From assembly GCA_008632985.1 (NCBI GenBank), contig QPGO01000083.1, positions 336,428 to 356,427 of the forward strand: a stretch of DNA of 20,000 nucleotides, given 5' to 3'. The position numbers were made by a program, and so were the translations under genes. The first letter of the stretch is position 1. Each line of letters begins with the position of its first letter. The stretch comes from Psammoneis japonica. Lineage: Eukaryota. Of the stretch, positions 1 to 20,000 are shown in pieces. Under the pieces are notes generated by a model. It saw only the letters and a program-made list of their open reading frames with translations. It made no database searches and was not told the origin of the DNA.

Positions 1-1
1 T

Positions 2-518
2 GACATGGGGAAGCAGGCGGTTGGCATGCAGGTGGAAGCCATGGCATCCAAGGCGTTGCGATGCTTGGCTCTCGCGTACAAGGAGGAAACGGGAGTCCTT
101 GCCAAGTACAATGGTGAGCGTAATCATGAAGGTCACAAGGCTTTGAGTGACACGGCGGGATATGCCGACATTGAATCCGACTTGGTCTTTTGTGGTTTGG
201 TTGGTATGCTGGACCCGCCGAGACCCGAGATTGCTCCCATGATTGAAGTTTGTCACACGGCCAATATTCGGGTCATTATGATTACGGGTGACAACAAGCT
301 TACGGCTGAATCGATTTGCCGTATGGTGGGAATCTTTGGAGAGTCGGAATCCTTGGATGATGTTTCCTTTACAGGCGGAGAATTCTTTAGCATGCCTGAA
401 GCCAAGCAGCAAAAGATTCTATCCGGCGGTGGACTGGTGTTTTCGCGCACCGAACCCAAGCACAAGCAGCAGCTAGTGCGACTCCTGAAACGTCATGGTG
501 ATATTGTTGCAATGACGG
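2..518 (+). CDS. SERCA: P2A-type (SERCA/ECA-like) Ca2+-transporting ATPase, internal exon (gene starts upstream of the window)
   Basis: Motifs ALRCLALAYK, GMLDPPR, VIMITGDNKLTA, FSRTEPKHK, VAMTG. Donor G|GTAAGC at 518/519. Confidence 0.95.
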
Positions 519-1575
<1,057 letters not shown>

Positions 1576-2332: not shown

Positions 2333-2337
2333 TCTTA
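2333..2337. repeat. 5-bp target site duplication, left copy (TCTTA)
   Basis: TCTTA directly precedes the LTR at 2338 and recurs directly after the other LTR at 9607-9611. Confidence 0.95.
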
Positions 2338-2613
2338 TGATAGAAATTGAAGGCAAATGGCAAGAATTCAAACAATAACTCCTTGCTGCTGTCTAAATAG
2401 CAGATGAGTCTCCGCTCAGAGACCGTCACAGGAGCCGAAGGACGTGCAAGTCGGCATAATCGGGCTACTGTCATTATTCTTGTGAGCCTTGTGGCTCGAA
2501 AGCAAACCACATCGCGCGTGAACGCGCGGAACTAAAGCACACAAAACTGTGCACGGTAAACTAAACAGCGCGCGATGCTTCGCGCGCACCTAAATCCTGT
2601 TCAAATCCTGTCA
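2338..2613 (-). repeat. 3' LTR (276 bp)
   Basis: TGATAGAAAT...ATCCTGTCA. 265/276 identical to 9331-9606 by hand alignment, no indels. Confidence 0.97.
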
Positions 2614-2619
2614 CTCCCC
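2614..2619 (-). other. Polypurine tract (GGGGAG) abutting the 3' LTR
   Basis: Minus strand reads AAACTGGGGAG|TGACAGG, directly upstream of the 3' LTR start. Confidence 0.8.
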
Positions 2620-2948
2620 AGTTTGCTTGAGGAGCCACAGAAACAGATTCGACTTCGGATGGAATGAAGTTCCAGAACATGAGGGGGCGGAGAAGGTCCC
2701 AGATTTGGGAGTGACCCCAATGCTTGCTGAGAATGTCAGCAGGGTTGCGGGAGCCTTCGATGAAGTGGAACTCAAGGTGACCAGAGGCAATTGCCTCACG
2801 CACACGGTGGAATGACAGTGCGGTGTGTCGCTTGTGTAACTTGGAGTGCGGGATGGTGGCACTGTCTGCAACCGACTTGTTGTCACCGAACATGTGACCA
2901 ACGTTGCGGATCGGGACGCCAAGGCAGCGCAGGGTGATGCGCAGGTCG

Positions 2949-3271
2949 ACAATCTGCTCAACACAAGTCCTTGCGGCAACAAATTCAGACCCGCAGGTCG
3001 CAGTCTCCACGGTGGCTTGTTTCTCAGAGAACCAATCAGCCGGGAATTTGTTGAGGAAGTGGAGCATTCCCATGACAGAGCGTCCGGTGAGCATGCAATG
3101 GCACAAGAAAAAACAATCTGCTCAACACAAGTCCTTGCGGCAACAAATTCAGACCCGCAGGTCGCAGTCTCCACGGTGGCTTGTTTCTTAGAGAACCAAT
3201 CAGCCGGGAATTTGTTGAGGAAGTGGAGCATTCCCATGACAGAGCGTCCGGTGAGCATGCAATGGTGCAAG
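2949..3271. repeat. Tandem duplication of 159 bp (2949-3107 and 3113-3271) with an AAAAA spacer
   Basis: The copies differ at 3 positions (3025/3189, 3102-3103/3266-3267). The net +164 bp shifts the RNase H frame. Confidence 0.95.
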
Positions 3272-4587
3272 TTTGCATCGACGTAGTGGGTGGCAGTGAC
3301 GAACTTGCCAAGGGGCGGTGGAGCGTCCTTCGGGATCATCTCTTCTGCTTCACCACACACGGAATGCATCCATTCATGGGCCGGAGCAGGGAGATCCGAA
3401 TGGTCGGGCTCTTCCGTGCGAACGCGGAGAGCACCGTGTCGCATCTTGGAGAGGCACCCACAGACGCGCTTGGCACGATCCAAGTGGCCTTGACGGGGCG
3501 CAGCTCGGAAGCTAGAGAGTGACATGACGGCCGTGGCAATGTCAATTCGACCAAGGGACACTGCCCATTGGAGTGAACCAACAAGAGACTGGAACTTGTG
3601 GATGCCATCGGGTCCCAGCAGTTCGGAAGTGTCCAGTTCGGGGTGGTCACCCTTCTCTAGAGGTGACAGGGCGTTGGTGGCAGGTTTCTCCCCAAACAGT
3701 CGGGCACAGCTGTCGACCATGCGCTCGATGTACTTGCGCGGAGACAGGCACAAGGTTCCGTCGGGTTCCCGGGAAAAGTCGCAACCCAGATGGAACTCAA
3801 TGGGTCCCGCACCCTTGAGCTTGAACTTGTGCTTTTCCGTGAGGGTGTCGACGAAAGATTGAGGGTCCTTCATGGCAATGGCGAGGTCATCCACATAAAC
3901 GGCAATGCATTCACAGTGGTCGCCGTTCCTGCACATCCAAATGTGGGGTTCGGCGCGGCAGGGGAAGAAGCCTTCAGCTCGCAGGCAGTCGGCGAAGCGC
4001 TCGTGCCAGCGGAGACCGGAGCTGCGCAGTCCATGCAGTGCCTTGTGGATGACAAGGATGTGTCCTTCGAGTTTGCCGAACTCGGGTCCAGCTGCAATGT
4101 AAAGCTTCTCCTTGGTGGTGGCTTCAAGGTGGGCATTGCCAATGTCGGTGGCCCATGTCTCCAACTCGTTGAGTTCGGCCAGGAAAATCATCAGCCGAAG
4201 GCCACGGAGGGAGACTGCTCCGGAGTGGACACTGTCGACAGGCACGTCCGTGAGGTGCCCGTCGGCTACGAGTCGTGCCTTGTGGCGACCGTCGTGTTTC
4301 ACGTCGCACACCAGGTGCACTTGGATCTTCTTGTGTCCCGCAGGAGGAGTGGAAGACTTGAAGGGCCCGCAGTCATGGAAGACTTCGTACTCGTCGAGTT
4401 GGTCCATCTCGAGATTAGTTGCGTCTCCCCACTTGCGGTTGCCGTTGCGTTCGTCCAGTGACATGGCATGTTTGCAGTTCCGGGGAACTTCGTGTCCACA
4501 CTTGCAGCGAGGTGCAGTGCGGAAGGAGCGAAGCTTGGCTTGGTTGGCCATGCGAAATGGCTTCTTTTGGCGCCTCGCGATGGTGCG

Positions 4588-4797
4588 GAACCGCTTCCAG
4601 CCATCCGTGTCGAGGAGTCCGTTCTCTCGTGCATAGATGGCACAGGTGACGGGGTCGTCCTTGGCGATGATGGCAAGAGGCTCGGACGTGATCTCCCCAC
4701 TTTCCCATTCAAGCATGATGTTGTAGCTGGAGCCTTTCCAGGTTGGGTCGTGAGGCTTCAGAGGTCCTTCGTGTGACACGATGCGTCGAAATTTCCA
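4588..4797 (-). other. Chromodomain-like module at the integrase C-terminus
   Basis: WKFRRIVSHEG...SSYNIMLEWESGEITSEPL...YARENGLLDTDGWKRF fits the chromo/chromoshadow pattern. Such modules are reported for diatom CoDi copia elements. Confidence 0.65.
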
Positions 4798-7700
4798 AAC
4801 AGTGGTGTCTTCGTCTTCTTGCTCAATGTGATTCATGATGTCATTGCAGGCAAGGACTTCCTCGCATTCGTCATTGTTGACAGAGCAGACGAACTTAGTG
4901 AGCTCGGGATTGCCGTTCACTTTCCATTCGTGGTCTTCGACGGCCTTGACGATGCGAGCTCTGTGGCGTTGTCCGTCCTCTTGTGGCTGCATGAGGAAGG
5001 CACGTCCAATGATGTCTTGCGGATCGAAAACTGGCATCTTGGGTGTCCTGATCTCCCCATCAGGAGAGTCGACGGGGTTGTCGTCATGGCGAGATTTGAT
5101 GATGGGTTCAGGTGGCTCCCCATCAGGAGGATCAAGACGCAGGTTTCGGACGGCAGGATCGGGGGTGGCGGAGCGGACGTTGGACCGGCAGAGGATCTTC
5201 TGATTCTCATCAGATAGAATCTTGAAGGTCATCTGGTGGCCGACGTGCTCAGCAATGCCAACGAAGCGTCCACGCAACTCACGGGATTCGGACGGCCAAT
5301 CGGAGTCATCGAGGTGGAAGCACACGGGTTCCCACCAGTGAAAGCGAAGCAATGGGCTGATGTCCGGGGTGGAGCCAGTGAGAGTCTCAAGGGGCATGTG
5401 CCAGTGGAGACGTGGGGACGCTGCATGGTTGAGCATGAAGCACACGCACATGAGCGCCAGCAGCCATGCATGGGCGGGCGAACCAAAACGATCCATGACA
5501 GTGTTCGCCATGCGCTTCACGGTCTGGTGTCGACGCTCGGCAAAGTTTTGGTGTTGCTGGTGAGGCTCACTTTGCCAGCTAGAGATGAAGAGGGCGCGCA
5601 GGATCCCGAGCACTTTGTTGCTGATCTCAACTTGAGCACGGTCGCTAATGAGTTTGGATGGGGCACCACGTTCACGGATCTGATCCTCGAGTGTGTTGAC
5701 AAACTCTTTGTCCGTCTCAGTGCCGCAGACGTCAGTGACGGTAGACTCGGTGCCAACAAACAGTTGGGCGCTGGTGCAACCAGAGTCGACGGCCGGGGTG
5801 TCGGCACAAACGGTGTCAGTGGCGACAGGCTCGTTGCGGCGGTGCACATTAAGGGCGGGGTTGGGTGATTTGTGGGCCTTGCGAAGGTGTGCACCGGCGG
5901 GCATGCGGGCGCACTGCGTGGTGCAGTCAAAAGTACGACGGACCGCATCGGCAGGTGGGAAGCCAAAGCAAGGCCGAAGAGACTCGAAGGGGGGGTCCTT
6001 GGGCTGTACAGTGCGCTCCGGAGGTGGAACATCATCGCCCTGGGGGCCAATCGCATGCAGATGACACTCGTAGAACACGTCGTCGTTCGGAATGAGGTGA
6101 TCATCGAGGGCGGACGCGTGATCGGCAGACAAGGAAGCGGACATGATGGTCTCGTTGACAACGACACGATGACGGCAGTTGCCGCATTCGTCAAATAGGT
6201 TGGCAGTGGGATCGTCCTGCAGGTCAGAGATCGCGTCGCACCACTGGTCGTCGTCAGTGACAGAGTGATCGAGGACGGAAGGGTCCCATGTGTCATCACC
6301 GGTGAGGATGACATGGGGCAGGGTGTCCCATTCGGCGTCAGTGCAAGGTCGCATGGCAACACAAGGCAGGCCAGCCTTGATGTCAATGGGGATGACACAG
6401 CCATCAGGAGTGGCAACACGTTGCAAGCCGTTGGGCACCTTGACAGAGCGATCGTTGACATCCTGTTTGTGCCATTCGAGCTGGCCGCAGGAATGGATGG
6501 TCTTGCCCTTGCCCGTGCATGCGCACTGATGGAGTGTGGCGATGACGGGACCACGCTGGGTCTCAATGACGGCACCAGCGGTGACAATGGGGATGTCCAC
6601 CAATTGATGATCGTCAATGCCCTGAACGTCGACTTGGCGAGAGGTGCGTGCAATGACGCGAACGTCGTCGCCAGCAATGCCGCCGTTGGCCCCACGATCG
6701 ACTAGAGCGCCAGTGCGTGTGGAGCGATGAGCAGAAGCAGAGTGAATGACATTGTGGTTGTTGACGCGGCGGCAAGTGCGACCGTCAAGTTCCATGTCAT
6801 CTGCAGAAGCTGGTGGGGTAGAGGAAGCGGCGGATGGCCCCGGTCGACTGGCATTGGGGGCTTGGTTAGGAGACAACAGACGTTGCAGATCACCGGGTGG
6901 CAGTGGCTTGCACTTGGTGAGGTGCGCCAGGATGGGATCATCCGAAGTGGCGTCCACATGTGGAGCGGAGTCACCAGAGTCAGCAGGAGTCGTGTTGGAC
7001 AAGTTGACATCACCGTCACTCCCAAGGCGTTGGTCATGAAGGTTGGCCGTAACAGACTCATGGCAGTTGCTGGCTCGCGGGTTGCAGGGAGGTGGACGAG
7101 AATGCTCAAGGATGATCGCCTTGGAGGAATCGGGCAACGAATCCCAGAGCCGTTGGTGGTCGGGAGGGAGACGTCTCCATTGGACACCGGCGAGGCTGGG
7201 ACCGCGGGTGCAGGCAGCATTGGCTTGAAGGACGTCAACGTTGCTGTCAATGTCGTAGAACACATCGTCGGACGGTTCCTCGGAGTGGACGTCGTGTGCG
7301 TGTGTGGCGCATCGGGGAGCTCGAGGTGTCGTCTTGGGTTGAAATGTGCTGTCGCACTGAGCTGCGGCGGAGAGGAGCAAGCCACAGTGTTGATCGCATG
7401 TGAGGCTCTTGCCACTCTGTGTACGATGCTGATCAGCTTGGTTCTTGACAGCACGGAGTTCCTCGACAGGGTGCACGGCATTCTCGAGCATGACGCGCTT
7501 CTGTCCTTCAGAGAAGTGGTCACTGGCCGGGATGAGTGCCTCGCACTTGCGCAACTGATCTTGCCAATGAAGGATGAACCCGTGGGTCAGACCTTTCCAA
7601 GTGCCATCACCAAGACACGCGGTGGTGAGGCACGTGAGCAGGGTGGAGGACTCGACAGATGCGCGGGTGGAGGCAAGCGCGTGCTCAGACAAGGAGCGGC

Positions 7701-8464
7701 AGACGGTCTGTGCGTCAGAAGACCCCACATTTTCGCGAATGAGAGCCTTGCCCTTGTCGGTGAGAAGGATGCGTTCGAAGACGGCGAACATGCACTTTTG
7801 CTGTTCAGCAAAGAGCAGTTTGTCTTCGGGGCTGGTCGGTTTGTACGACGAGTCTAGAATGCACTTGACGTCTTGGGCACGGGCTTGTGCCACAAGTGAG
7901 GTGTGCCAAGTGTGCCACTGCTTGTCAGATTTGAGAGCCGTGAAAGTGGGATCACGCTTGATGCCTCGCTTGAAGTCCCGCACCGGGTCGCGTGCCTTGG
8001 TCGAGTTGGTGACATGTGGAGGTGCAAGGGGTGAGCTGCCGATGGACACAGAAGACATGTGGTCGGGGCTGAGGCGGCAGGCAAGGAACTCGTCATGCGT
8101 GAACAAAGAGGAGTCGTTGGCAACGTCAAGACCTTTGTGTGCTTTGACAATGTACAGACTGACTGGTGCTGCTAACATGTTCTCATAACCACGGGGCAAA
8201 GGGATTGCATTGGCGCCGTTGTCGCACTCAAGCGAGTCGATTTGGGACGGCATGAATGTGAACAGTTCCTGATGCGAGTCTGTGCCGTCTTGGGCCAAAG
8301 CCAAACGAAGAGGACTCCCAGCACCTTGGGCAAGCACGGTTCCAACCACGTGCTCGAAACCATCGGTTTGTTGCTGACGAGTGAGAACCATGGTGGACAA
8401 AGGTGGTGTCAGGACAATCAATTCTGGTTGGGAAGCGAAGGTAGACTCGAAACTTGGGTGAGAG

Positions 8465-8496
8465 TGGACTTGACTTGAAATGGACTTGACTTGAAA
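8465..8496. repeat. 2 x 16-bp tandem repeat TGGACTTGACTTGAAA in the retrotransposon 5' leader
   Basis: Exact copies at 8465-8480 and 8481-8496, followed by a further CTTGAA unit. Confidence 0.85.
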
Positions 8497-9315
8497 TCTT
8501 GAACTGTCTTAAAATCAGAAGTCGCCGGGCTTTGTTGTCCCGTTCGTTGTCAAGTGCTAAACTTCCCATCCGGTCCGTAGAGTTGTGCCGGCACGTCCGA
8601 ACCCGCAGCTGGTGGCGCTTTGGGTTGCTTGCGAGTGGAGCAGCGGGTTGCAAACCCCTGCAGGCAAGCTGACTGGAGGTGGACAAGACCCCCGAACCGT
8701 TCTCATTTTGTGTCGGTTGGATTTCCCGATCAGGCTGGCCAGTTGACGCAGGCGTTGGGCGCTGTGGACGAACGAACAAACGCGGGAAAGCACCCTCGCC
8801 CCAACGCAGGCTGCAATCACGGCCACCTGCTCTCACAGTCGTCCTCGTGGACCTGGCAGAACTGTAGAGCACCAGCAGTCCGGGGCAGATCAGGTGCAAT
8901 GGACTCGGTGTGCTTGTAGAGTGGCAGCAAAACCGCAGTCCGAAGAGTGGACAAAGGTTCTTGGCCGTGAAGACATGTACACACACACATGTCTTCAGCG
9001 ACTAAGATCCTTGAACATGTGGGGTTCTTGACCGTTAACCGAGGAACAGGTATATCAAGGGATGTTGATCAAGGATAGACTTGGATATGACCGTTGAATG
9101 TAAGTCTTCAGCGATCAAAGGTAGTGCAATCAATCCAGATGTCCAGCGGCAAGGAGACTTGACGGTGACGTTAACTTCCTGCCGATGCCCTGGTGTTGAA
9201 TGCGCGTAGACTTGCCGATGTATGTAGAACACATACGGAGGTCCACGTAGAATTGAAATAGCGTCGTTGGTAAATCAACGACGACGATGGCGGTTGCTCA
9301 ATGGGTTGACAATGA

Positions 9316-9330
9316 GCAAGACTGTTAATC
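9316..9330 (-). other. Putative primer binding site complementary to a tRNA-Asn(GTT) anticodon arm
   Basis: Directly after the 5' LTR the element reads GATTAACAGTCTTGC, with no TGG. Its complement GCAAGA-CT-GTT-AA-TC has the form of a tRNA-Asn anticodon stem-loop. Confidence 0.6.
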
Positions 9331-9606
9331 TGATAGAAATTGAAGGCAAATGGCAAGAATTCAAACAACAACTCCTTACTGCTGTCTAAATGGCAGATGA
9401 GTCTCCGCTCAGAGACCGTTGCAGGAGCCGAAGGACGTGTAAGTCGGTGTGATCGGGCTACTGTCATCATTCTTGTGAGCCTTGTGGCTCGAAAGCAAAC
9501 TACATCGCGCGTGAACGCGCGGAACTAAAGCACACAAAACTGTGCACGGTAAACTAAACAGCGCGCGATGCTTCGCGCGCACCTAAATCCTGTTCAAATC
9601 CTGTCA
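9331..9606 (-). repeat. 5' LTR (276 bp)
   Basis: Direct repeat of 2338-2613 with TG..CA ends. Confidence 0.97.
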
Positions 9607-9611
9607 TCTTA
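9607..9611. repeat. 5-bp target site duplication, right copy (TCTTA)
   Basis: Matches 2333-2337. Confidence 0.95.
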
Positions 9612-12600
9612 CGTGCTCTGGTGGCACTTTGACAGCGACTCCCTCCAACACTGACGTGCTGAGTTTCTCACAAAAAAACACACACAAGCAACCATGAGCA
9701 GCCCTGTGAATGCTGCAAGCAGCTTGGTGTCTCCCATGTGGTGTGGCTGGGCTTGTCCATTCTTCGAAGCACAGCAGCTGTGTTTGCCATGTGACAAGCA
9801 TCCGGTCGGTTGCTGTTTCGACTTTAAACTGTGGTGTCTGACAGGCATTGTTCTTGAACAGTGAATTAAACAGCTGTCAAATTGTCCCTGTCACCCTTTG
9901 TGGGCACTGGGGAATGTGGGTCTGCTGCTGTGGGGTCGGTCCTGATCAACTTTTCTGCCGCACTCAACCGGTGCACTGGAAATGTGGGTCAGCTGGCGCC
10001 GGCACAGCCAACAACAGCTCAGTGGAACTTAAAACACAGATTTGGTTTTTCTTTAATTGACAATCTGTGCACATTGTCAGGAGTTGTGTGTGTCCACCCC
10101 ACTGAGAAACTGTCATCGAACAGGTTGATGGGCATGCAAAGATGACCGGCAGACACTTCAACAGTGTCGCCCCATTGCTTCAGCTTGACCTTGCTCTGTT
10201 GTTGACATGGATTTGTTTTCTTGTGCAGAGCTTTCATCCTGCCATCATCCATGGGCAGTCAACACATGAGATCAATGGAAAACACAGAGAACGTCCCTGC
10301 CAAGCAGAGATTCGCTGGTGTGGTGCTGCAGATGATGGTTTGGCAGTGAGCGCAACAGGTTTGTGGAGCTGTTGGAACAAGCAAGAGCCAGAAAAGTTGT
10401 AGGTTGATGTTGGTGAGATGGTGCTTCATGAAGACTGGCCTCAGAAACTCCAAGAGGAGCACAACAAATGCGCTGGAAATGCCAGCCAGCTGTGCAACAA
10501 CCCCCAGCTGTGTCCCCAGAGAGTGCACTTGACTGTTTTCAGTCAGCCCGGCTTTTCCATTGCATCGTTCTGAGATGCTTGAATGTGGAGCTTGAACCGC
10601 TGGGTTGTCCTCAGAAAAATGCTTCTGATCCAGCATTCGTTGATGGCTTGCATTGTTGCCATGTGTTTCATGATGAGGTCCAAGACCCAAGTTGACATTT
10701 CTCAATGCTTCCTTGTGGCACATCTCTGAGCTTCCTCTTCCACATTCAGAGCTCAATGGAGCTGCATTTCTGAAACTCCCTGAGTTGCACCATGCCAGCA
10801 CTGCTGAGTTCCTGCAATCCAGCAACATTTGTCCATCGCAGCAGGCTTGGGAATGTTTCTCTCTTCACCCCAATGATGGTGCTGGATGCAGAGCACACAG
10901 CAGTGGTGTGCGCATTGGCTGAAACCAGCAGTGCATGAAGCACAACAGCTTTCAATCACTCCTCCCACAATGCGTCCAAGATTGTGCCCATCTTTTGCAG
11001 AGGTGGTTGGCTGAGTCGTTTTTTTCTGCCAAACATCTTTTTTTTTTGCTGGTGGCCTTGCTGCTGAGAATGGTGGGCAGATGATGCACAAAGCGGCAGC
11101 CACGCTAACTCAACAAGCACGACTTAGTTTCAGCACTGCAAATTCGCCGTTAAAATGCCGTGGCTGGAAACTGCAGAAACCAACACACCATGGCGACTCT
11201 ACGGTCGCTGTTTCCTCAACGGCATCACCTTCAAGAGCCACAACAAAGAACAACATTTCACATCTCGTGAACTTGTGTGTGGCAGAATTGACACATGCAA
11301 GTGCAATGGGCTCATTGTTGACTCATGCAGTCAAAAAACGATGGGAAAAAAATTGAACATTTTTCAGCTGTTTTCACTGCGATCAATCAACATCAAAGCA
11401 CAGCAAGGCACACACATGTGAAATGAATTGCACGACATTGATGTGTGTCAGTGTTGTGGTGAGTTCATGGCTGTTGATGGAGTGCATTGCATTCGCGGTC
11501 GCCATTGTCGTTGCGTTTCAACAAGTCGTGGAAAATTTGAAATCCAGAACATTTGTGTGTGCAGGCATGTTGTCACTTGTGGGATTTAAACATTGGACAT
11601 TGCTCTGTGCACAGAGCATTTGCATTTTTCACTTGTTGCAATCTCATGTGTGCACAAGGTGTTGGCATTGATTGCCCAATGTGACACACATCAATGTCCA
11701 AATGTAAACATCAGACTTGCCGCCAGCAAAAAAAAAGGTGGGGGTGGTTGTTGGCTTGACTTGCAACACCATAAAAACAAGGCACCGATGGAGTTCTTTT
11801 CACTCCCCTTTCTCCACCCTCTCTTTCTGATTCTTGTTCATTGTTGCCAATTGTTTGAATGGCATGCAAAGTTTTGTCTTGTCATCTGAGAATGCAATCG
11901 CGTGAAGCTTCAATTTTTCAGTCCAGAGCCCATTGGAGGGCCCTCCCGATGGTCTTCTGGCACTTGCTTTCACCAATGTAGCCATGGCACTTGTGAACAA
12001 AAGAATCAGCAAGTTCAGGGCTTTCAATTGCAATGACTTCAAACTTGGCAAGAAACTTCCCCTGGAGCAAAGGTCACAGCACATTTTCAGCTCGCATTTC
12101 ACAACTTCTCGTGCTCTCTTTTCTCTGAAAGAAATCCACAGTCATGAGATTCTCAAGTGGTTCGTGAATTTTCACTCGCGGGTCTCCAGCATCAATGGCA
12201 AAGAAGGAACCAGATGTTCCTTTGTCCCGGTTGAAACCTTGGACGAGATGAGGTGCCTCTGCCTCAAGAGAGACAAAGCCTTTTGAAGGGCTCCAGTCCT
12301 GGGTGGGACTCTGTGTGCGGTGTGTGACATTTGGCATTTGGCGGGCCCACAGAATTCTGCGTGCGAGCTCCGCAACAAATTTGTCAAGCAATGAAAATGT
12401 AAATGATGACAGAAACATCCTTGCCACAACCGCCCCGCTCAAATCTGAATCTCTGTCATGCCAGTCTCTAGCTAGAGCAGAAGTGCTGTGGCATGTGCAA
12501 TGCATGTGCGTTGTCAAACAGCTGCAATGGCCACCGCGACTGTCAACATTCTCAAGCAGCAGGGGAAGAAAGTGAAGTTTGGCAAAGTCGATGATGACGA

Positions 12601-14720
12601 CATTGATTTTGGGTGCAAAGAGAAGAAATCGCGGCGGCGTTGGAATGTCATCAAAGATGAAAAGGTGAGTCAACAGACTGATTGTAGATTGTCGACAAAG
12701 TGCAGTGTTGTTCATCCTCTTGACTCGCCTGGTTTTGTTTTCTTTTTCTTTTTTTTTTCCGTCGTTGCCTTGTCTGCGCTGCACCAGGAGAAGAAAAAGA
12801 AGATGAGTCACGGTGCGCACACTGTCAACTCTGCTGACGCTCCTTCCACCGCTCTTTGGATTTTTCGTTTTTGCAGCTCCTTTGTGTTTCTCTTGAATGC
12901 TTTTTCTCATCTGTTTTTTTTTTTCCCACAAACAGAGCAACACGTTCTCTGTGTGCAGCTTGATGATCCGGCGAATGCCAACGTGCTTTCACAGTGGTCC
13001 AATCTTAGCGTTTTTGAAACAATTGCAAATCTTTTTTTCCGAGAAGCTGGTGTCCCCAATGCGAGTGCCAACAGTTTGCAAGGCAACCTTGATTCGTTGC
13101 GCACTGTCCCATTTGGAAGCTTGAGTGCAAATGCTCTCAAACATTTGCAAGTTTTGATGGACATTGTGAAGAGGAGGGCCGGCTGGTCCACAGCGAAACT
13201 TGTGATGCCAACCAATTCTCCGAACAATCGTCCCAAACCTGGCGGTTGTGGCAGAGCCGGCAGCAGTGGCGGACTCGGAAGCAAGGCTTGCATTGTTGGG
13301 GAACAACAAAAGAAATGTGCAGTTGTTGAATTTGTCGCCAAGGAAAATCCTTTTGAGCGGAAATCACTTTTCTGCAACAACAGCTGTGCTCACTTCTGTC
13401 ATTGGGGGGAGATTCGTTGCCATGGTGGAGATGAGTTGTGGGGTTGGCAGTGCGAGAAGATGACATGATGCTGCACTGCACATCTCTCTCCCCCATGTTG
13501 AACACGGCAATTGTTGCACAATTTGTATGAAGTGTCCAAGCTAGATGCAAGAAAATGGGGTAGACAACGCAAAGACAATTGACAGCATGCAGTGGCAGAC
13601 AATGGTGAGCTCAAAACAAATGACACAAGTTCAAGCAGTTGCAGTTGCCTGAATGTCTGGGGAAATCGGACTCCAAAATGCAACTACAAAGGAGATTGGT
13701 GATGCAAACAATCTGCCGAGCATTGTCCTGGACTTTCTTTCTGCTTTCATTGAAAAAGAAAAGAAAAATGCAAAAGATTTGTCTGCTTTGAATGGGATTC
13801 ACCGTTTTGGTGGGAATCAAGATTTGGCTCATTCTTTTTGGATGGTCTGCTGTGAGATCATCAACATCTAAGAGATGGACAGACAAGTTTGCGCTGCACT
13901 TTTTGTTGCTGCAGCTGCGGGTTTGACATTGAGATGAGGTTTGTGAGATGACAGCCATTGCCACAACTGCTGAAACAATCAGCACGAACCTGCTTGGTGC
14001 AAATGACAAACATTGGAGAACTGGCAGAGGCAGTCTCTTTTTTTTTTCAGTTGGCAAGAACATGCTTGGACCGGCTGTGTGTGGGGTGGAATGCTCTTGC
14101 ATGGTCACCATGCAAAAGTGAATGACGTTCCTTGCCATGCAGTTGGCTCAAGAGTGAATTTCAAACATTGCAGTGGGTGTGGTTGCAGAGCAAGACCATG
14201 AATGTCCATGAGCAAGAAACCACCACAAACACATGTGACAGCTCTTTCTGCATGACAAAACATTCAAAAAGTTGCCCTGCTCCAGCTGCATTTTCATGCA
14301 AAGCAAGATTGTGCTTCAACAATGTGCCCAAAGCAATGGGAGCCGAGCGTGGGATTTTGGTGGGTGCCTTGGCCAGCTGAGTCGGCACTGTGCCAAAGCG
14401 TGTGTGCAATGCCACACCTTTTCACTGTGCTTTGCTTTCAGAAAAGTGGGGCACCAGCAGAAGAAACAAGCCATGGCATTGAGCTGAGTGTAGAAATGAA
14501 GATGCGTTGGCTCAAGCTGCGAGCTGGATGTTCTTTGGGGGGTTCCCCCGCTCCCCCGCCCCTGTTGGTTTTCGCTCTTGAGCCTCTTCAGATGCTCCTC
14601 TATCCTTGCATTCTGTGGCACAAAAGGTTCATCACCAAGTGAGTCAAAACAGCAGTTTATGACTGCAAACAGCGGATTTTTGGCCACTGAGTTGGCAACC
14701 AATTGGTGAAAAAGGGTTTC
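9612..14720. other. Degenerate block depleted of both TpA and CpG, probably relics of repeats or pseudogenes of unknown family
   Basis: No TA seen between 10402 and 11105; about 9 CG in 10441-11040; strong TG/CA excess; Cys/His-rich ORFs in all frames; no recognisable domain. Confidence 0.75.
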
Positions 14721-19601: not shown

Positions 19602-20000
19602 TCACTTTTTCCTTGGCTTTTCTCGAAGGCGCATGCCCGCTTTATGCCATGCATCGTCAATGTGCATAACGTAATAGACACCTTCAACATTCGGTGCCTT
19701 GGCAAGGAACCGCCCTCCATATCCATGAACCTTTTCCACAAGTTTGCGACTGCAAGCTTCCTTTTTCTTTTTGTCCTTGTGCGGAATTGCCTGGTACTCT
19801 TCCCTGAATTGTGCCACCACTGATTGAAGGGTCTTATTGCCTGTATGGTTGATGACAGCTCCGCCTCGCCCCGGAAGGACATCAAGCTCGCCAACGTCTT
19901 TCTCCTCAACAAACGTGCGGACAGAATTTTTTTTCGTACTAATGTTCTTTGTTGGAACGTTCCTGGAAGACTTGTGAGGGATCTTCTCGGTCCTTTTTAC
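19602..20000 (-). CDS. DUF6824-domain protein, 3' part (5' end beyond the window)
   Basis: The frame is open from 20000: ELDVLPGRGGAVINHTGNKTLQSVVAQFREEY...SRKLVEKVHGYGGRFL...AWHKAGMRLRE. This fits the diatom-expanded DVLxGRG..N.H.GN...GGRFL pattern. Confidence 0.8.
   Translation of the reverse strand, partial: VKRTEKIPHKSSRNVPTKNISTKKNSVRTFVEEKDVGELDVLPGRGGAVINHTGNKTLQSVVAQFREEYQAIPHKDKKKKEACSRKLVEKVHGYGGRFLAKAPNVEGVYYVMHIDDAWHKAGMRLREKPRKK

Follow-up and report, generated by a model that had tools for sequence, protein, structure and literature searches.

The question raised by this locus is how the gag-pol frame of a copia-type element can have stayed open over kilobases while losing nearly all of its tyrosine codons. 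The window, a stretch of 20,000 nt analysed in its entirety, carries a complete Ty1/copia LTR retrotransposon on the minus strand (2338-9606; Table 1), flanked by genes which mark the host as a stramenopile, probably a diatom. The element has two direct LTRs with TG..CA ends, the 5-bp target-site duplication TCTTA was read at both of its ends, and the match to Pfam RVT_2 (PF07727) scored 85.1 bits against a cut-off of 31.6. It belongs to a high-copy family, the summed contig depth reaching 68,000-120,000 in the element bins versus about 56 in the flanks. A total of 15206 library proteins matched the ORF at E <= 1e-10, the sole named diatom relative, from Cylindrotheca closterium, showing 62% identity across the RT region. 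The homologue alignment spans 1070 residues upstream of the RT as well as the RT itself, and the rve domain was absent from the Pfam results for the ORF and for all four full-length homologues scanned. In its RVT_2 domain, single gag-pol frame, 5-bp target-site duplication and TG..CA LTRs, the element resembles the CoDi copia elements of diatoms (Maumus et al. 2009, PMC2806351), the searched text of which makes no mention of TpA, dinucleotides or deamination. Four long ORFs in the adjacent tract, which is partly at single-copy depth, were also scanned, and none returned a Pfam family. The explanation favoured here, with a probability of roughly 0.68, is that the copia element was hit as integrated DNA by a TpA-specific A:T>G:C hypermutation.

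Table 1. Positions of the features of the element and its surroundings within the window.
Feature	Positions	Strand	Basis or property
Target-site duplication TCTTA, left copy	2333..2337	.	LTR alignment; same 5 bases as 9607-9611
3' LTR, TG...CA ends	2338..2613	-	276-nt direct repeat; TpA o/e 0.64
Frame with the true pol C-terminus (RNase H end)	2561..3121	-	Agrees with C-terminal consensus of homologue alignment; 0 Tyr in 187 codons, 17 of which extend into the LTR
164-bp tandem duplication, 159-nt copies 2949-3107 and 3113-3271	2949..3271	-	pol frame shifted +2
gag-pol ORF as listed, 1936 codons, first ATG 8391	2611..8421	-	TpA o/e 0.13, GC 0.575
Reverse transcriptase domain, Pfam RVT_2, ORF residues 1360-1571	3709..4344	-	E = 7.3e-24, 85.1 bits; positions converted from residue numbers
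Distal 5' leader, TpA-depleted	8422..8864	-	TpA o/e 0.19, 4 TA
LTR-proximal leader, TpA near normal	8865..9330	-	TpA o/e 0.67, 20 TA
5' LTR	9331..9606	-	276-nt direct repeat; TpA o/e 0.58
Target-site duplication TCTTA, right copy	9607..9611	.	Read at right end
Adjacent non-coding tract, not recognisably copia	9612..14500	.	TpA o/e 0.07, CpG o/e 0.44, TG 1.69, CA 1.74

The initial annotation had estimated about 12 tyrosines in some 1760 in-frame residues, and a count of the 1762 residues encoded between the first ATG (8391) and the junction of the duplication (3107) gave 12 Tyr, 60 Cys and 87 His. Over the entire listed ORF the corresponding proportions were 0.67% Tyr, 3.56% Cys and 4.65% His, compared with means of 4.24% Tyr (sd 0.93) and 1.31% Cys in 269 homologues. 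All 17 of the peptide strings quoted as bearing the substitutions were located, 14 in the main frame and three (LRCLGVP, GHMFGDN and SVADS) in the frame running from 3121 to 2561. That conserved tyrosines now read as cysteine or histidine was confirmed by alignment with 90 homologues, in which the 28 columns with a Tyr consensus were occupied in the window by 4 Tyr, 8 Cys and 7 His; retention of the consensus residue in these columns (4/28) was far below that for all other residues (406/520; Fisher p = 6.7e-12). At the DNA level the substitutions were traced to TA->TG/CA, the conserved Tyr codons reading TGY or CAY.

The codon-table argument advanced at the outset, that no sense codon becomes a stop by TA->TG/CA, is valid, and for this reason the long frame is still open. 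The associated claim that the ORF has stayed open was borne out for the listed 1936-codon frame but not for pol itself, the frame of which is broken by the 164-bp duplication, past which the final ~165 codons of the listed ORF lie in the wrong frame. It is scarcely credible that the protein nonetheless remains intact because transcripts are recoded to Tyr codons by RNA editing, or because TGY and CAY are read differently: the broken frame argues against it, non-coding sites in the LTRs and leader have changed too, and host ORFs in the window use TAY for Tyr, at 2.0-3.1% of residues in four of the five, which likewise gives no indication of a variant code. Two homologues, from unrelated metagenome contigs (L060 and L065), carry the same His and Cys residues; because both are TA-depleted, and L060 contains stops, they are fellow victims of TA loss and not active counter-examples.

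The loss is a property of the TpA dinucleotide. Values of TpA o/e were 0.13 in the ORF and 0.58-0.64 in the LTRs, as against 0.60 and 0.53 in the host flanks, while ApT in the ORF stood at 0.96, AA/TT at about 1.0 and CpA/TpG at 1.57/1.32. Depletion is confined to the two repeat tracts (0.13 and 0.07, versus 0.53-0.60 in the flanks), and host genes are spared. When the RT region was compared with those of 10 relatives (489 pooled TA positions), the window retained TA at 9% and read CA at 33% and TG at 27%; retention of the remaining 15 dinucleotides was 29-61%. Equivalent data for the 139 sites with TA in at least 30% of aligned relatives gave 50 CA, 45 TG, 15 TA and 29 other, and the two principal outcomes were interspersed (46 runs versus 48.4 +/- 4.9 expected, P = 0.35). 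The changes are thus restricted to TpA and yield TpG and CpA in balance between the strands. Within the interior about 6-20% of inferred ancestral TA was kept in every 250-codon bin, no 5'->3' gradient of loss being seen across the ORF in these bins, and the surviving TA occurred preferentially in YTAR contexts. Since 78 of 80 metagenome relatives lay at a TpA o/e of 0.46-1.01, low TpA is not a clade-wide trait.

Fungal RIP, which makes many stop codons, is similar in that it disables repeats and transposons through dense transitions in a particular sequence context of chromosomal DNA, for which a dinucleotide footprint is diagnostic. It was rejected on the basis of the depleted TpA (0.13) and enriched CpA/TpG (1.57/1.32): RIP, as described in PMC2621366, changes C to T at CpA and enriches TpA, whereas the copia element shows the opposite, with TpA lost, CpA/TpG gained and no stops made. 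Decay of 5-methylcytosine at CpG was also rejected for the element, in which CpG o/e was 0.89 in the ORF and 1.2 in the LTRs; it fits only the tract 9612-14500, with its value of 0.44.

The LTR pair and the tandem duplication served as internal comparisons. Between the two LTRs 11 nt in nine sites were unlike, every one of the TA versus TG/CA type and with no other position affected (P about 1.7e-6 for nine out of nine under random transitions), while none of the 20 LTR CpGs differed between the copies. The copies of the tandem duplication differed by 3 nt in two sites, either TA versus CA or CA versus TG. When polarised from TA, all 11 LTR differences and all three in the duplication were A>G/T>C. 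Two of the LTR sites read CA in one copy and TG in the other, which in the absence of any CpG difference supports TA as the ancestral state. LTRs may also come to differ in the late steps of reverse transcription, and differences between them are no absolute proof of post-integration change. As the LTR differences are all TA-type, the 11 events in 32 TA copies represent a loss of about one third, and the rest of the 2 x 276 nt shows no change; the TA changes would accordingly have arisen after insertion, over a period in which the background left the same LTRs without change.

Four independent lines (the Tyr codons, other family copies, the CA/TG sites of the LTRs and TA depletion itself) upheld the direction TA->TG/CA proposed in the initial annotation. 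In a sequencing run which contains the window and may be the assembly's own data, hence not independent, TA was carried at positions 2779, 2868, 2896 and 2899 by 85-100% of the remaining copies; the TG or CA of the window is private to this copy. Among 40 of about 1080 variable places, classed by eye, 14 places within the element were listed at which at least 85% of the depth was unlike the window: five were TA-type (the above four and 3378), two CpG-type, five other A>G/T>C and two transversions. The differences of this copy from its family are therefore not all TA-type. At 3377-3378, 3401-3402 and 3830-3831 the window reads TG, the first base being C in 45-68% and the second A in 45-85% of the depth; shared older changes exist at these places, and in some instances an ancestral CG is possible.

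These data bear on two further explanations, both of which are highly improbable. The first holds that poverty in TpA (and CpG) is a selected or inherited composition of the family, serving for example to avoid UpA-directed RNA decay, and that no damage has occurred. Suppression of UpA and CpG is indeed known in RNA viruses and cytoplasmic RNAs, as reported in PMC3829696, and the right-hand tract is low in both; set against this are the loss of Tyr at columns conserved in 90 homologues, the ordinary TpA of 78 of the 80 relatives, the TA found at several of these sites in most copies of the same family, and differences within the LTRs and duplication that point to ongoing neutral TA loss in this very copy. 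The second attributes the pattern to sequencing or assembly, on the view that modified bases at TpA in silenced DNA were miscalled as TG or CA. The sole run with the window may be the source of the assembly, and the window base at 8402 was supported by no contig, but contigs of that run matched the TA-poor single-copy part 13064-13664 with 0 differences and homologous sites were called differently in the two LTRs. Moreover, the same pattern was found in both L060 and L065, and the Bigelowiella natans lines described in bioRxiv 10.64898/2026.01.13.699255, sequenced on Illumina NovaSeq, had real de novo changes.

A further alternative, less easily set aside though still unlikely, places the damage before integration, with an adenosine deaminase editing genomic RNA and/or minus-strand cDNA during retrotransposition in the manner of APOBEC3, each new copy being born dead. 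The minus strand of a retrovirus is single-stranded longest beside the PPT and shortest at the LTR and leader, and the sparing of LTR and leader looks like an APOBEC3 gradient. The heavily mutated interior ends in a sharp edge at 2613/2614, the PPT/3' LTR junction, as editing of single-stranded minus-strand cDNA would predict, and most other copies still have TA at several sites mutated here, as if the masters were intact. The uneven loss (about one third in the LTRs, an o/e of 0.67 in the leader 8865-9330) counts against the favoured reading, since a uniform chromosomal process predicts otherwise. A minus-strand target, however, predicts almost exclusively sense T>C (Tyr>His), in contrast to the 45 TG and 50 CA interspersed in the window and the 8 Cys against 7 His in the Tyr columns, and the ORF lacks a 5'->3' gradient. 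The RT of L065 is TA-depleted in its 5' half and not in its 3' half, the opposite of a PPT-directed gradient, and the same TpA loss extends to the tract 9612-14500, not recognisably a retroelement and partly at single-copy depth. APOBEC3 and ADAR likewise involve a deaminase mutating mobile-element nucleic acid, but such editing is strand-specific and clustered, and that of ADAR not restricted to UA, whereas the changes in the copia element are strand-balanced, unclustered (46 runs versus 48.4, P = 0.35) and TpA-restricted, and its LTRs are unlike each other. In B. natans, according to the preprint cited above, it is chromosomal DNA derived from DNA viruses that acquires the signature.

On the favoured reading, hypermutation of integrated DNA, the element would first have become chromosomal DNA and then been exposed to a process that turned A:T into G:C almost exclusively at TpA. 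The dinucleotide being palindromic, the A of either strand could be altered, giving TpG or CpA, whereby TAY (Tyr) would become TGY (Cys) or CAY (His) and GC content would rise. TadA edits in the UAC context of an anticodon loop. The candidate agent would be a DNA-acting adenine deaminase (ADAT2/TadA-like), as proposed for B. natans, which may function as a targeted defence.

The precedent is provided by Mettrop et al. 2026 (bioRxiv 10.64898/2026.01.13.699255), in whose mutation-accumulation lines of B. natans integrated viral DNA was directly seen to undergo TpA hypermutation. By their account, two regions of viral DNA in the genome acquired 231 de novo mutations, of which 230 were A>G/T>C, all of them TpA -> TpG or CpA; reverse transcriptase and DDE domains were over-represented among low-TpA CDS; and the authors suggest that foreign DNA is countered by an adenine deaminase acting on DNA (ADAT2/TadA-like), the Discussion adding that ADAR and ADAT/TadA enzymes favour U before the edited A. 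Common to that system, as there described, and the copia element are the near-exclusive A>G/T>C change at TpA giving both TpG and CpA, the confinement to foreign-DNA tracts, where the rate greatly exceeds the background and outside which host genes show an ordinary spectrum, and the long-term signature of low TpA with high CpA+TpG. By way of contrast, B. natans is a rhizarian and the present host a stramenopile; the main target there was a single-copy giant-virus insert and here a high-copy LTR retrotransposon; depletion is far deeper here (o/e 0.13 and 0.07 versus a Rho of 0.45 in the B. natans NCLDV region); in the copia element loss is comparatively slight in the LTRs and leader, and YTAR contexts survive preferentially; and changes seen de novo in B. 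natans are known here from a sequence footprint. The main text of the preprint uses none of the terms 'diatom', 'stramenopile', 'LTR', 'retrotransposon' and 'context'.

The locus would add a second, independent instance of TpA-specific hypermutation of foreign DNA, the first resting on one 2026 preprint and one chlorarachniophyte, and if true it would bring a further lineage of eukaryotes, and retrotransposons as well, within the range of the process. A broader proposal, offered tentatively and at somewhat less than even odds, is that of a TpA-directed adenine-deamination defence, an 'inverse RIP', operating in diatoms or other stramenopiles and in chlorarachniophytes: an old and widespread system of the SAR clade, which would kill retrotransposons without making stops, spare promoter-like LTR and leader DNA, and obey a duplex context rule under which YTAR is refractory. 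Strand balance, lack of clustering, spared LTRs and leader, and refractory YTAR sites together constrain the mechanism, and a comparison of genomes with and without the footprint could point to the deaminase. LTR pairs and the tandem duplication provide an internal clock in which TA sites change and nothing else does. Because TA loss leaves the frame open, dead elements keep kilobase-long frames, pass ORF-based annotation and are recorded as intact. Their age will be overestimated from LTR divergence, which is 4% here and lies entirely at TA, so that LTR dating in such genomes would be badly wrong if this reading is true.

Three copia features were found in the element, namely an RVT_2 reverse transcriptase within the gag-pol ORF (Pfam, E = 7.3e-24), paired LTRs and a 5-bp target duplication; an integrase (rve) domain was recorded by Pfam neither in the ORF nor in four of four full-length homologues. 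Searches with the ORF returned 15206 copia-type relatives at E <= 1e-10, the best match having 58% identity over 1070 residues, and one named relative originated from the diatom Cylindrotheca closterium. The Pfam RVT_2 score was uninformative as a measure of damage, because the 85 bits recorded for the window lay within the 82–97 bits of four undamaged homologues. The flanks, which also encode a host mitochondrial carrier, contain SERCA-type Ca-ATPase and DUF6824 genes that, as judged from sequence matches, identify the host as a stramenopile, probably a diatom. The lineage signals of these two genes diverge, the Ca-ATPase being nearer to oomycetes and the DUF6824 gene pointing to diatoms.

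Features of the element and of the adjoining host genes
Feature	Position	Strand	Remarks
3' LTR	2338-2613	minus-strand element	276 nt, TG..CA ends
5' LTR	9331-9606	minus-strand element	276 nt, TG..CA ends
5-bp target duplication TCTTA	2333-2337 + 9607-9611		flanks both LTRs
Single gag-pol frame	8421 -> 2611	minus	1936 codons, first ATG 8391
Host SERCA-type Ca-ATPase C-terminus	1-1575		top named matches oomycetes 74-79%, diatoms 69-74%
DUF6824 protein gene	19602-20000		nearest Atlas clusters most frequent in Bacillariophyta

The initial annotation had reported that only about 12 Tyr residues persist in the gag-pol product, and precisely 12 were counted among the 1762 residues between the ATG and the junction of a 164-bp tandem duplication at the RNase H end of pol (2949–3107 and 3113–3271); all 17 of the peptide strings that it had quoted were located, three of them in frame with the true C-terminus. 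Tyr makes up 0.67% of the ORF and Cys 3.56%, the corresponding means for 269 homologues being 4.24% (sd 0.93) and 1.31%. When aligned with 90 homologues, the 28 columns with a Tyr consensus held Tyr in 4 cases, Cys in 8, His in 7, Phe in 5 and other residues in 4, whereas for the remaining consensus residues the window agreed at 406 out of 520 columns (Fisher p = 6.7e-12); an initial alignment with 19 homologues gave Tyr kept in 5 of 25 columns, with 11 Cys and 5 His. In the window, Cys is encoded at these columns by TGY and His by CAY. The claimed replacement of Tyr by Cys or His is thus confirmed as an observation, and its interpretation as the outcome of TA to TG/CA change is supported. Damage was scored by column and by dinucleotide against relatives in place of a blanket reversion of TG/CA to TA, because native and derived TG/CA are indistinguishable.

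The loss acts on a dinucleotide and not on an amino acid as such. The ORF has an observed/expected ratio (o/e) of TpA of 0.13, the two host flanks have 0.60 and 0.53 and the LTRs 0.58–0.64, with the ApT, AA and TT ratios of the ORF all being ~1. When the RT region was codon-aligned to that of 10 relatives (64–69% nucleotide identity), TA in the relatives, at 489 pooled positions, corresponded to TA in the window in only 9% of cases, to CA in 33% and to TG in 27%, each of the other 15 dinucleotides being kept in 29–61%. Throughout the whole ORF, the 139 sites with TA in at least 30% of the aligned relatives read CA at 50, TG at 45, TA at 15 and other dinucleotides at 29, and the 60 sites with TA in at least 50% of relatives read TG at 30, CA at 16, TA at 8 and TT at 6; of 84 consensus differences that one nucleotide change would explain, approximately 22 were A>G or T>C changes within TA. 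A general AT>GC bias outside TA was considered and found no support at non-synonymous sites, where the values were ~5.5 for A>G/T>C and 14.3 for G>A/C>T.

The LTRs of one element are identical at insertion. The present pair differs by 11 nt at nine sites, seven of them TA versus TG/CA and two CA versus TG, with zero differences elsewhere and all 20 CpGs common to both. Random transitions would be of this type in 22.8% of cases, giving P ~1.7e-6 for nine sites out of nine. Both CA/TG sites require an ancestral TA or CG and, as there is no CpG decay in the LTRs, TA is the parsimonious ancestor; each LTR would then have held 16 ancestral TA, of which 5 and 6 respectively were lost. The two copies of the tandem duplication differ by 3 nt at two sites, both of them former TA sites.

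Depth data from 15,384 contigs of the one sequencing sample holding the window (run X1) showed that the element is highly repeated, summed contig depths in element bins being 68,000–120,000 compared with ~56 in the single-copy flanks, summed depth not being equivalent to copy number. At 2779, 2868, 2896 and 2899 the window carries TG/CA against TA in 85–100% of depth, and its changes at these places are therefore derived and private. Copies in run X1 exhibited transitions at 837 of 1066 variable places. From 40 displayed of ~1080 variable places, 14 within the element had at least 85% of depth differing from the window, and these were classed by eye as five TA-type, two CpG-type, five other A>G/T>C and two transversions; 3377–3378 is among the sites at which most copies carry CA. 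The non-TA-type places and CA-majority sites count against a simple TA-only picture.

By the codon table, no sense codon can become TAA, TAG or TGA through a change from TA to TG/CA, and this property, together with almost no other post-insertion change in the LTRs, accounts for the 5.8-kb open frame. TA loss would not trivially leave such a frame open, since 18–84 TGA codons remain in the other frames of the element. The initial annotation was thus correct that a long ORF stays open, but not in respect of pol, the frame of which is broken by the +2 shift that the 164-bp duplication introduces: the true C-terminus lies in the frame running from 3121 to 2561, with 0 Tyr in 187 codons, and the listed ORF continues in the wrong frame. 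At its end (2561–2630) the true frame crosses the polypurine region and 17 codons of the 3' LTR ahead of a TAG at 2563–2561; at a guess, stops that once contained TA may survive as the CAA at 2629 and the TGG at 2620.

The TG (45) and CA (50) outcomes are balanced and interspersed, forming 46 runs compared with 48.4 ± 4.9 in shuffles (P = 0.35), and when the ORF was divided into eight bins of 250 codons, every bin had kept 6–20% of its inferred ancestral TA, without a gradient. Strand-coordinated (kataegis-like) clusters found no support, and the discordant sites (26 versus 23, p = 0.78) did not support a strand-specific rule in which the +1 base determines which A changes. Of 69 surviving TA, drawn from the interior (2614–8860), the right tract beyond the element and seven shared LTR sites with contexts read by eye, 31 were in YTAR, the flanks having 43 such sites among 265 (p = 2.4e-6), and NTAT was present at 0 of 38 interior survivors (plus strand) compared with 83 of 265 in the flanks. 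These figures give hints of a tetranucleotide context rule for TA survival, part of which coding context may confound.

TA density is normal through the 3' LTR, falls abruptly at the LTR/interior junction (TA at 2591, the next at 2837), stays low until ~8578 and is normal again from 8865 through the 5' LTR, the TpA o/e of the leader being 0.19 at 8422–8864 and 0.67 at 8865–9330. Near-normal values (0.58–0.67) are thus found in both LTRs and in the initial ~470 nt of the leader, although tracts of strong depletion adjoin them on either side. The LTRs are also CpG-rich (o/e 1.2, with GCGCGC runs). Editing of replication intermediates before integration, the main rival explanation, would give a neat account of the spared LTRs and leader and of the sharp PPT edge. 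However, it predicts one-sided, graded changes where balanced, ungraded ones are observed, leaves the neighbouring tract at 9612–14500 unaccounted for, and is considered improbable. Three further rivals, namely selection for low UpA, a base-calling artefact and RNA recoding, are all rated unlikely. The non-coding right tract at 9612–14500 has a TpA o/e of 0.07, a CpG o/e of 0.44 and TG and CA ratios of ~1.7. No similarity to copia was detected in the tract by blastn or by tblastn with 270 proteins (P0001–P0270, best E = 0.019), and none of its four long ORFs contained a Pfam family. Contig depth was that of a repeat at 10006–12673 and near single copy at 12674–14674. The tract may represent an older, unrecognisable insert that was a target of both TpA hypermutation and CpG decay.

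Among 80 metagenome loci encoding relatives, 78 had a TpA o/e of 0.46–1.01 and a GC content of 0.37–0.54, and two were depleted. One of the latter, L060 (1–2766), had a TpA o/e of 0.02, a CpG o/e of 0.44 and an RT in which 2 stops and a single Tyr accompany 12 Cys and 20 His; the other, L065 (depleted at 1–1250), had a TpA o/e of 0.33, 7 Tyr in RT and an abrupt switch to normal near base 1180, mid-RT. The undamaged loci L001, L002 and L005 had 21 Tyr each in RT. Only 10 of 1326 1-kb windows had a TpA o/e <=0.25, all from L060 and L065. Several proteins in the libraries have a low-Tyr, high-Cys/His make-up like that of the element, the low-Tyr examples including P0080 (0 Tyr, 6.3% Cys), P0133, P0242, P0045 and P0094. 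With few relatives depleted and the great majority ordinary in TpA, the footprint is therefore not a clade trait; the sequences indicate that it recurs sporadically, at the same conserved Tyr positions. Six whole loci (L005, L009, L021, L044, L052 and L055) have a strongly reduced CpG o/e of 0.10–0.25 and ordinary TpA, so that within the clade of the element the footprint of CpG decay can be told apart from that of TpA loss.

A full-text literature search, judged from its listings, returned this signature only in a 2026 preprint on the chlorarachniophyte Bigelowiella natans (bioRxiv 10.64898/2026.01.13.699255), with none for diatoms or retrotransposons, and terms for TpA and deamination gave no hits in PMC2806351, a paper on diatom copia elements. 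According to the preprint, the mutation rate of two integrated viral regions in mutation-accumulation lines of B. natans is ~1000-fold that of the remaining genome, with A>G/T>C accounting for 230 of 231 changes, all on TpA to TpG/CpA; reverse transcriptase and DDE domains are enriched among low-TpA CDS of that genome, and a DNA-acting ADAT2-like adenine deaminase with a defence role is proposed (10.64898/2026.01.13.699255). The terms diatom, stramenopile, LTR, retrotransposon and context are absent from the main text of the preprint (10.64898/2026.01.13.699255).

RIP proceeds in the opposite direction to the change in the window, and its expected feature was not found; APOBEC/ADAR-type editing carries an expectation of strand bias and clustering, both absent here; and CpG decay is contradicted by the intact CpG of the copia element. 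Every testable feature of B. natans-type hypermutation was found in the window, de novo change having been seen in B. natans only. It is accordingly considered probable, at roughly two chances in three, that the window is a new instance of the B. natans-type process, acting on the chromosomal DNA of a stramenopile retrotransposon. Beyond the precedent, the window offers a retrotransposon target, another lineage, an internal clock, strand balance, LTR sparing and YTAR survival, and this added detail makes the mechanism easier to test.
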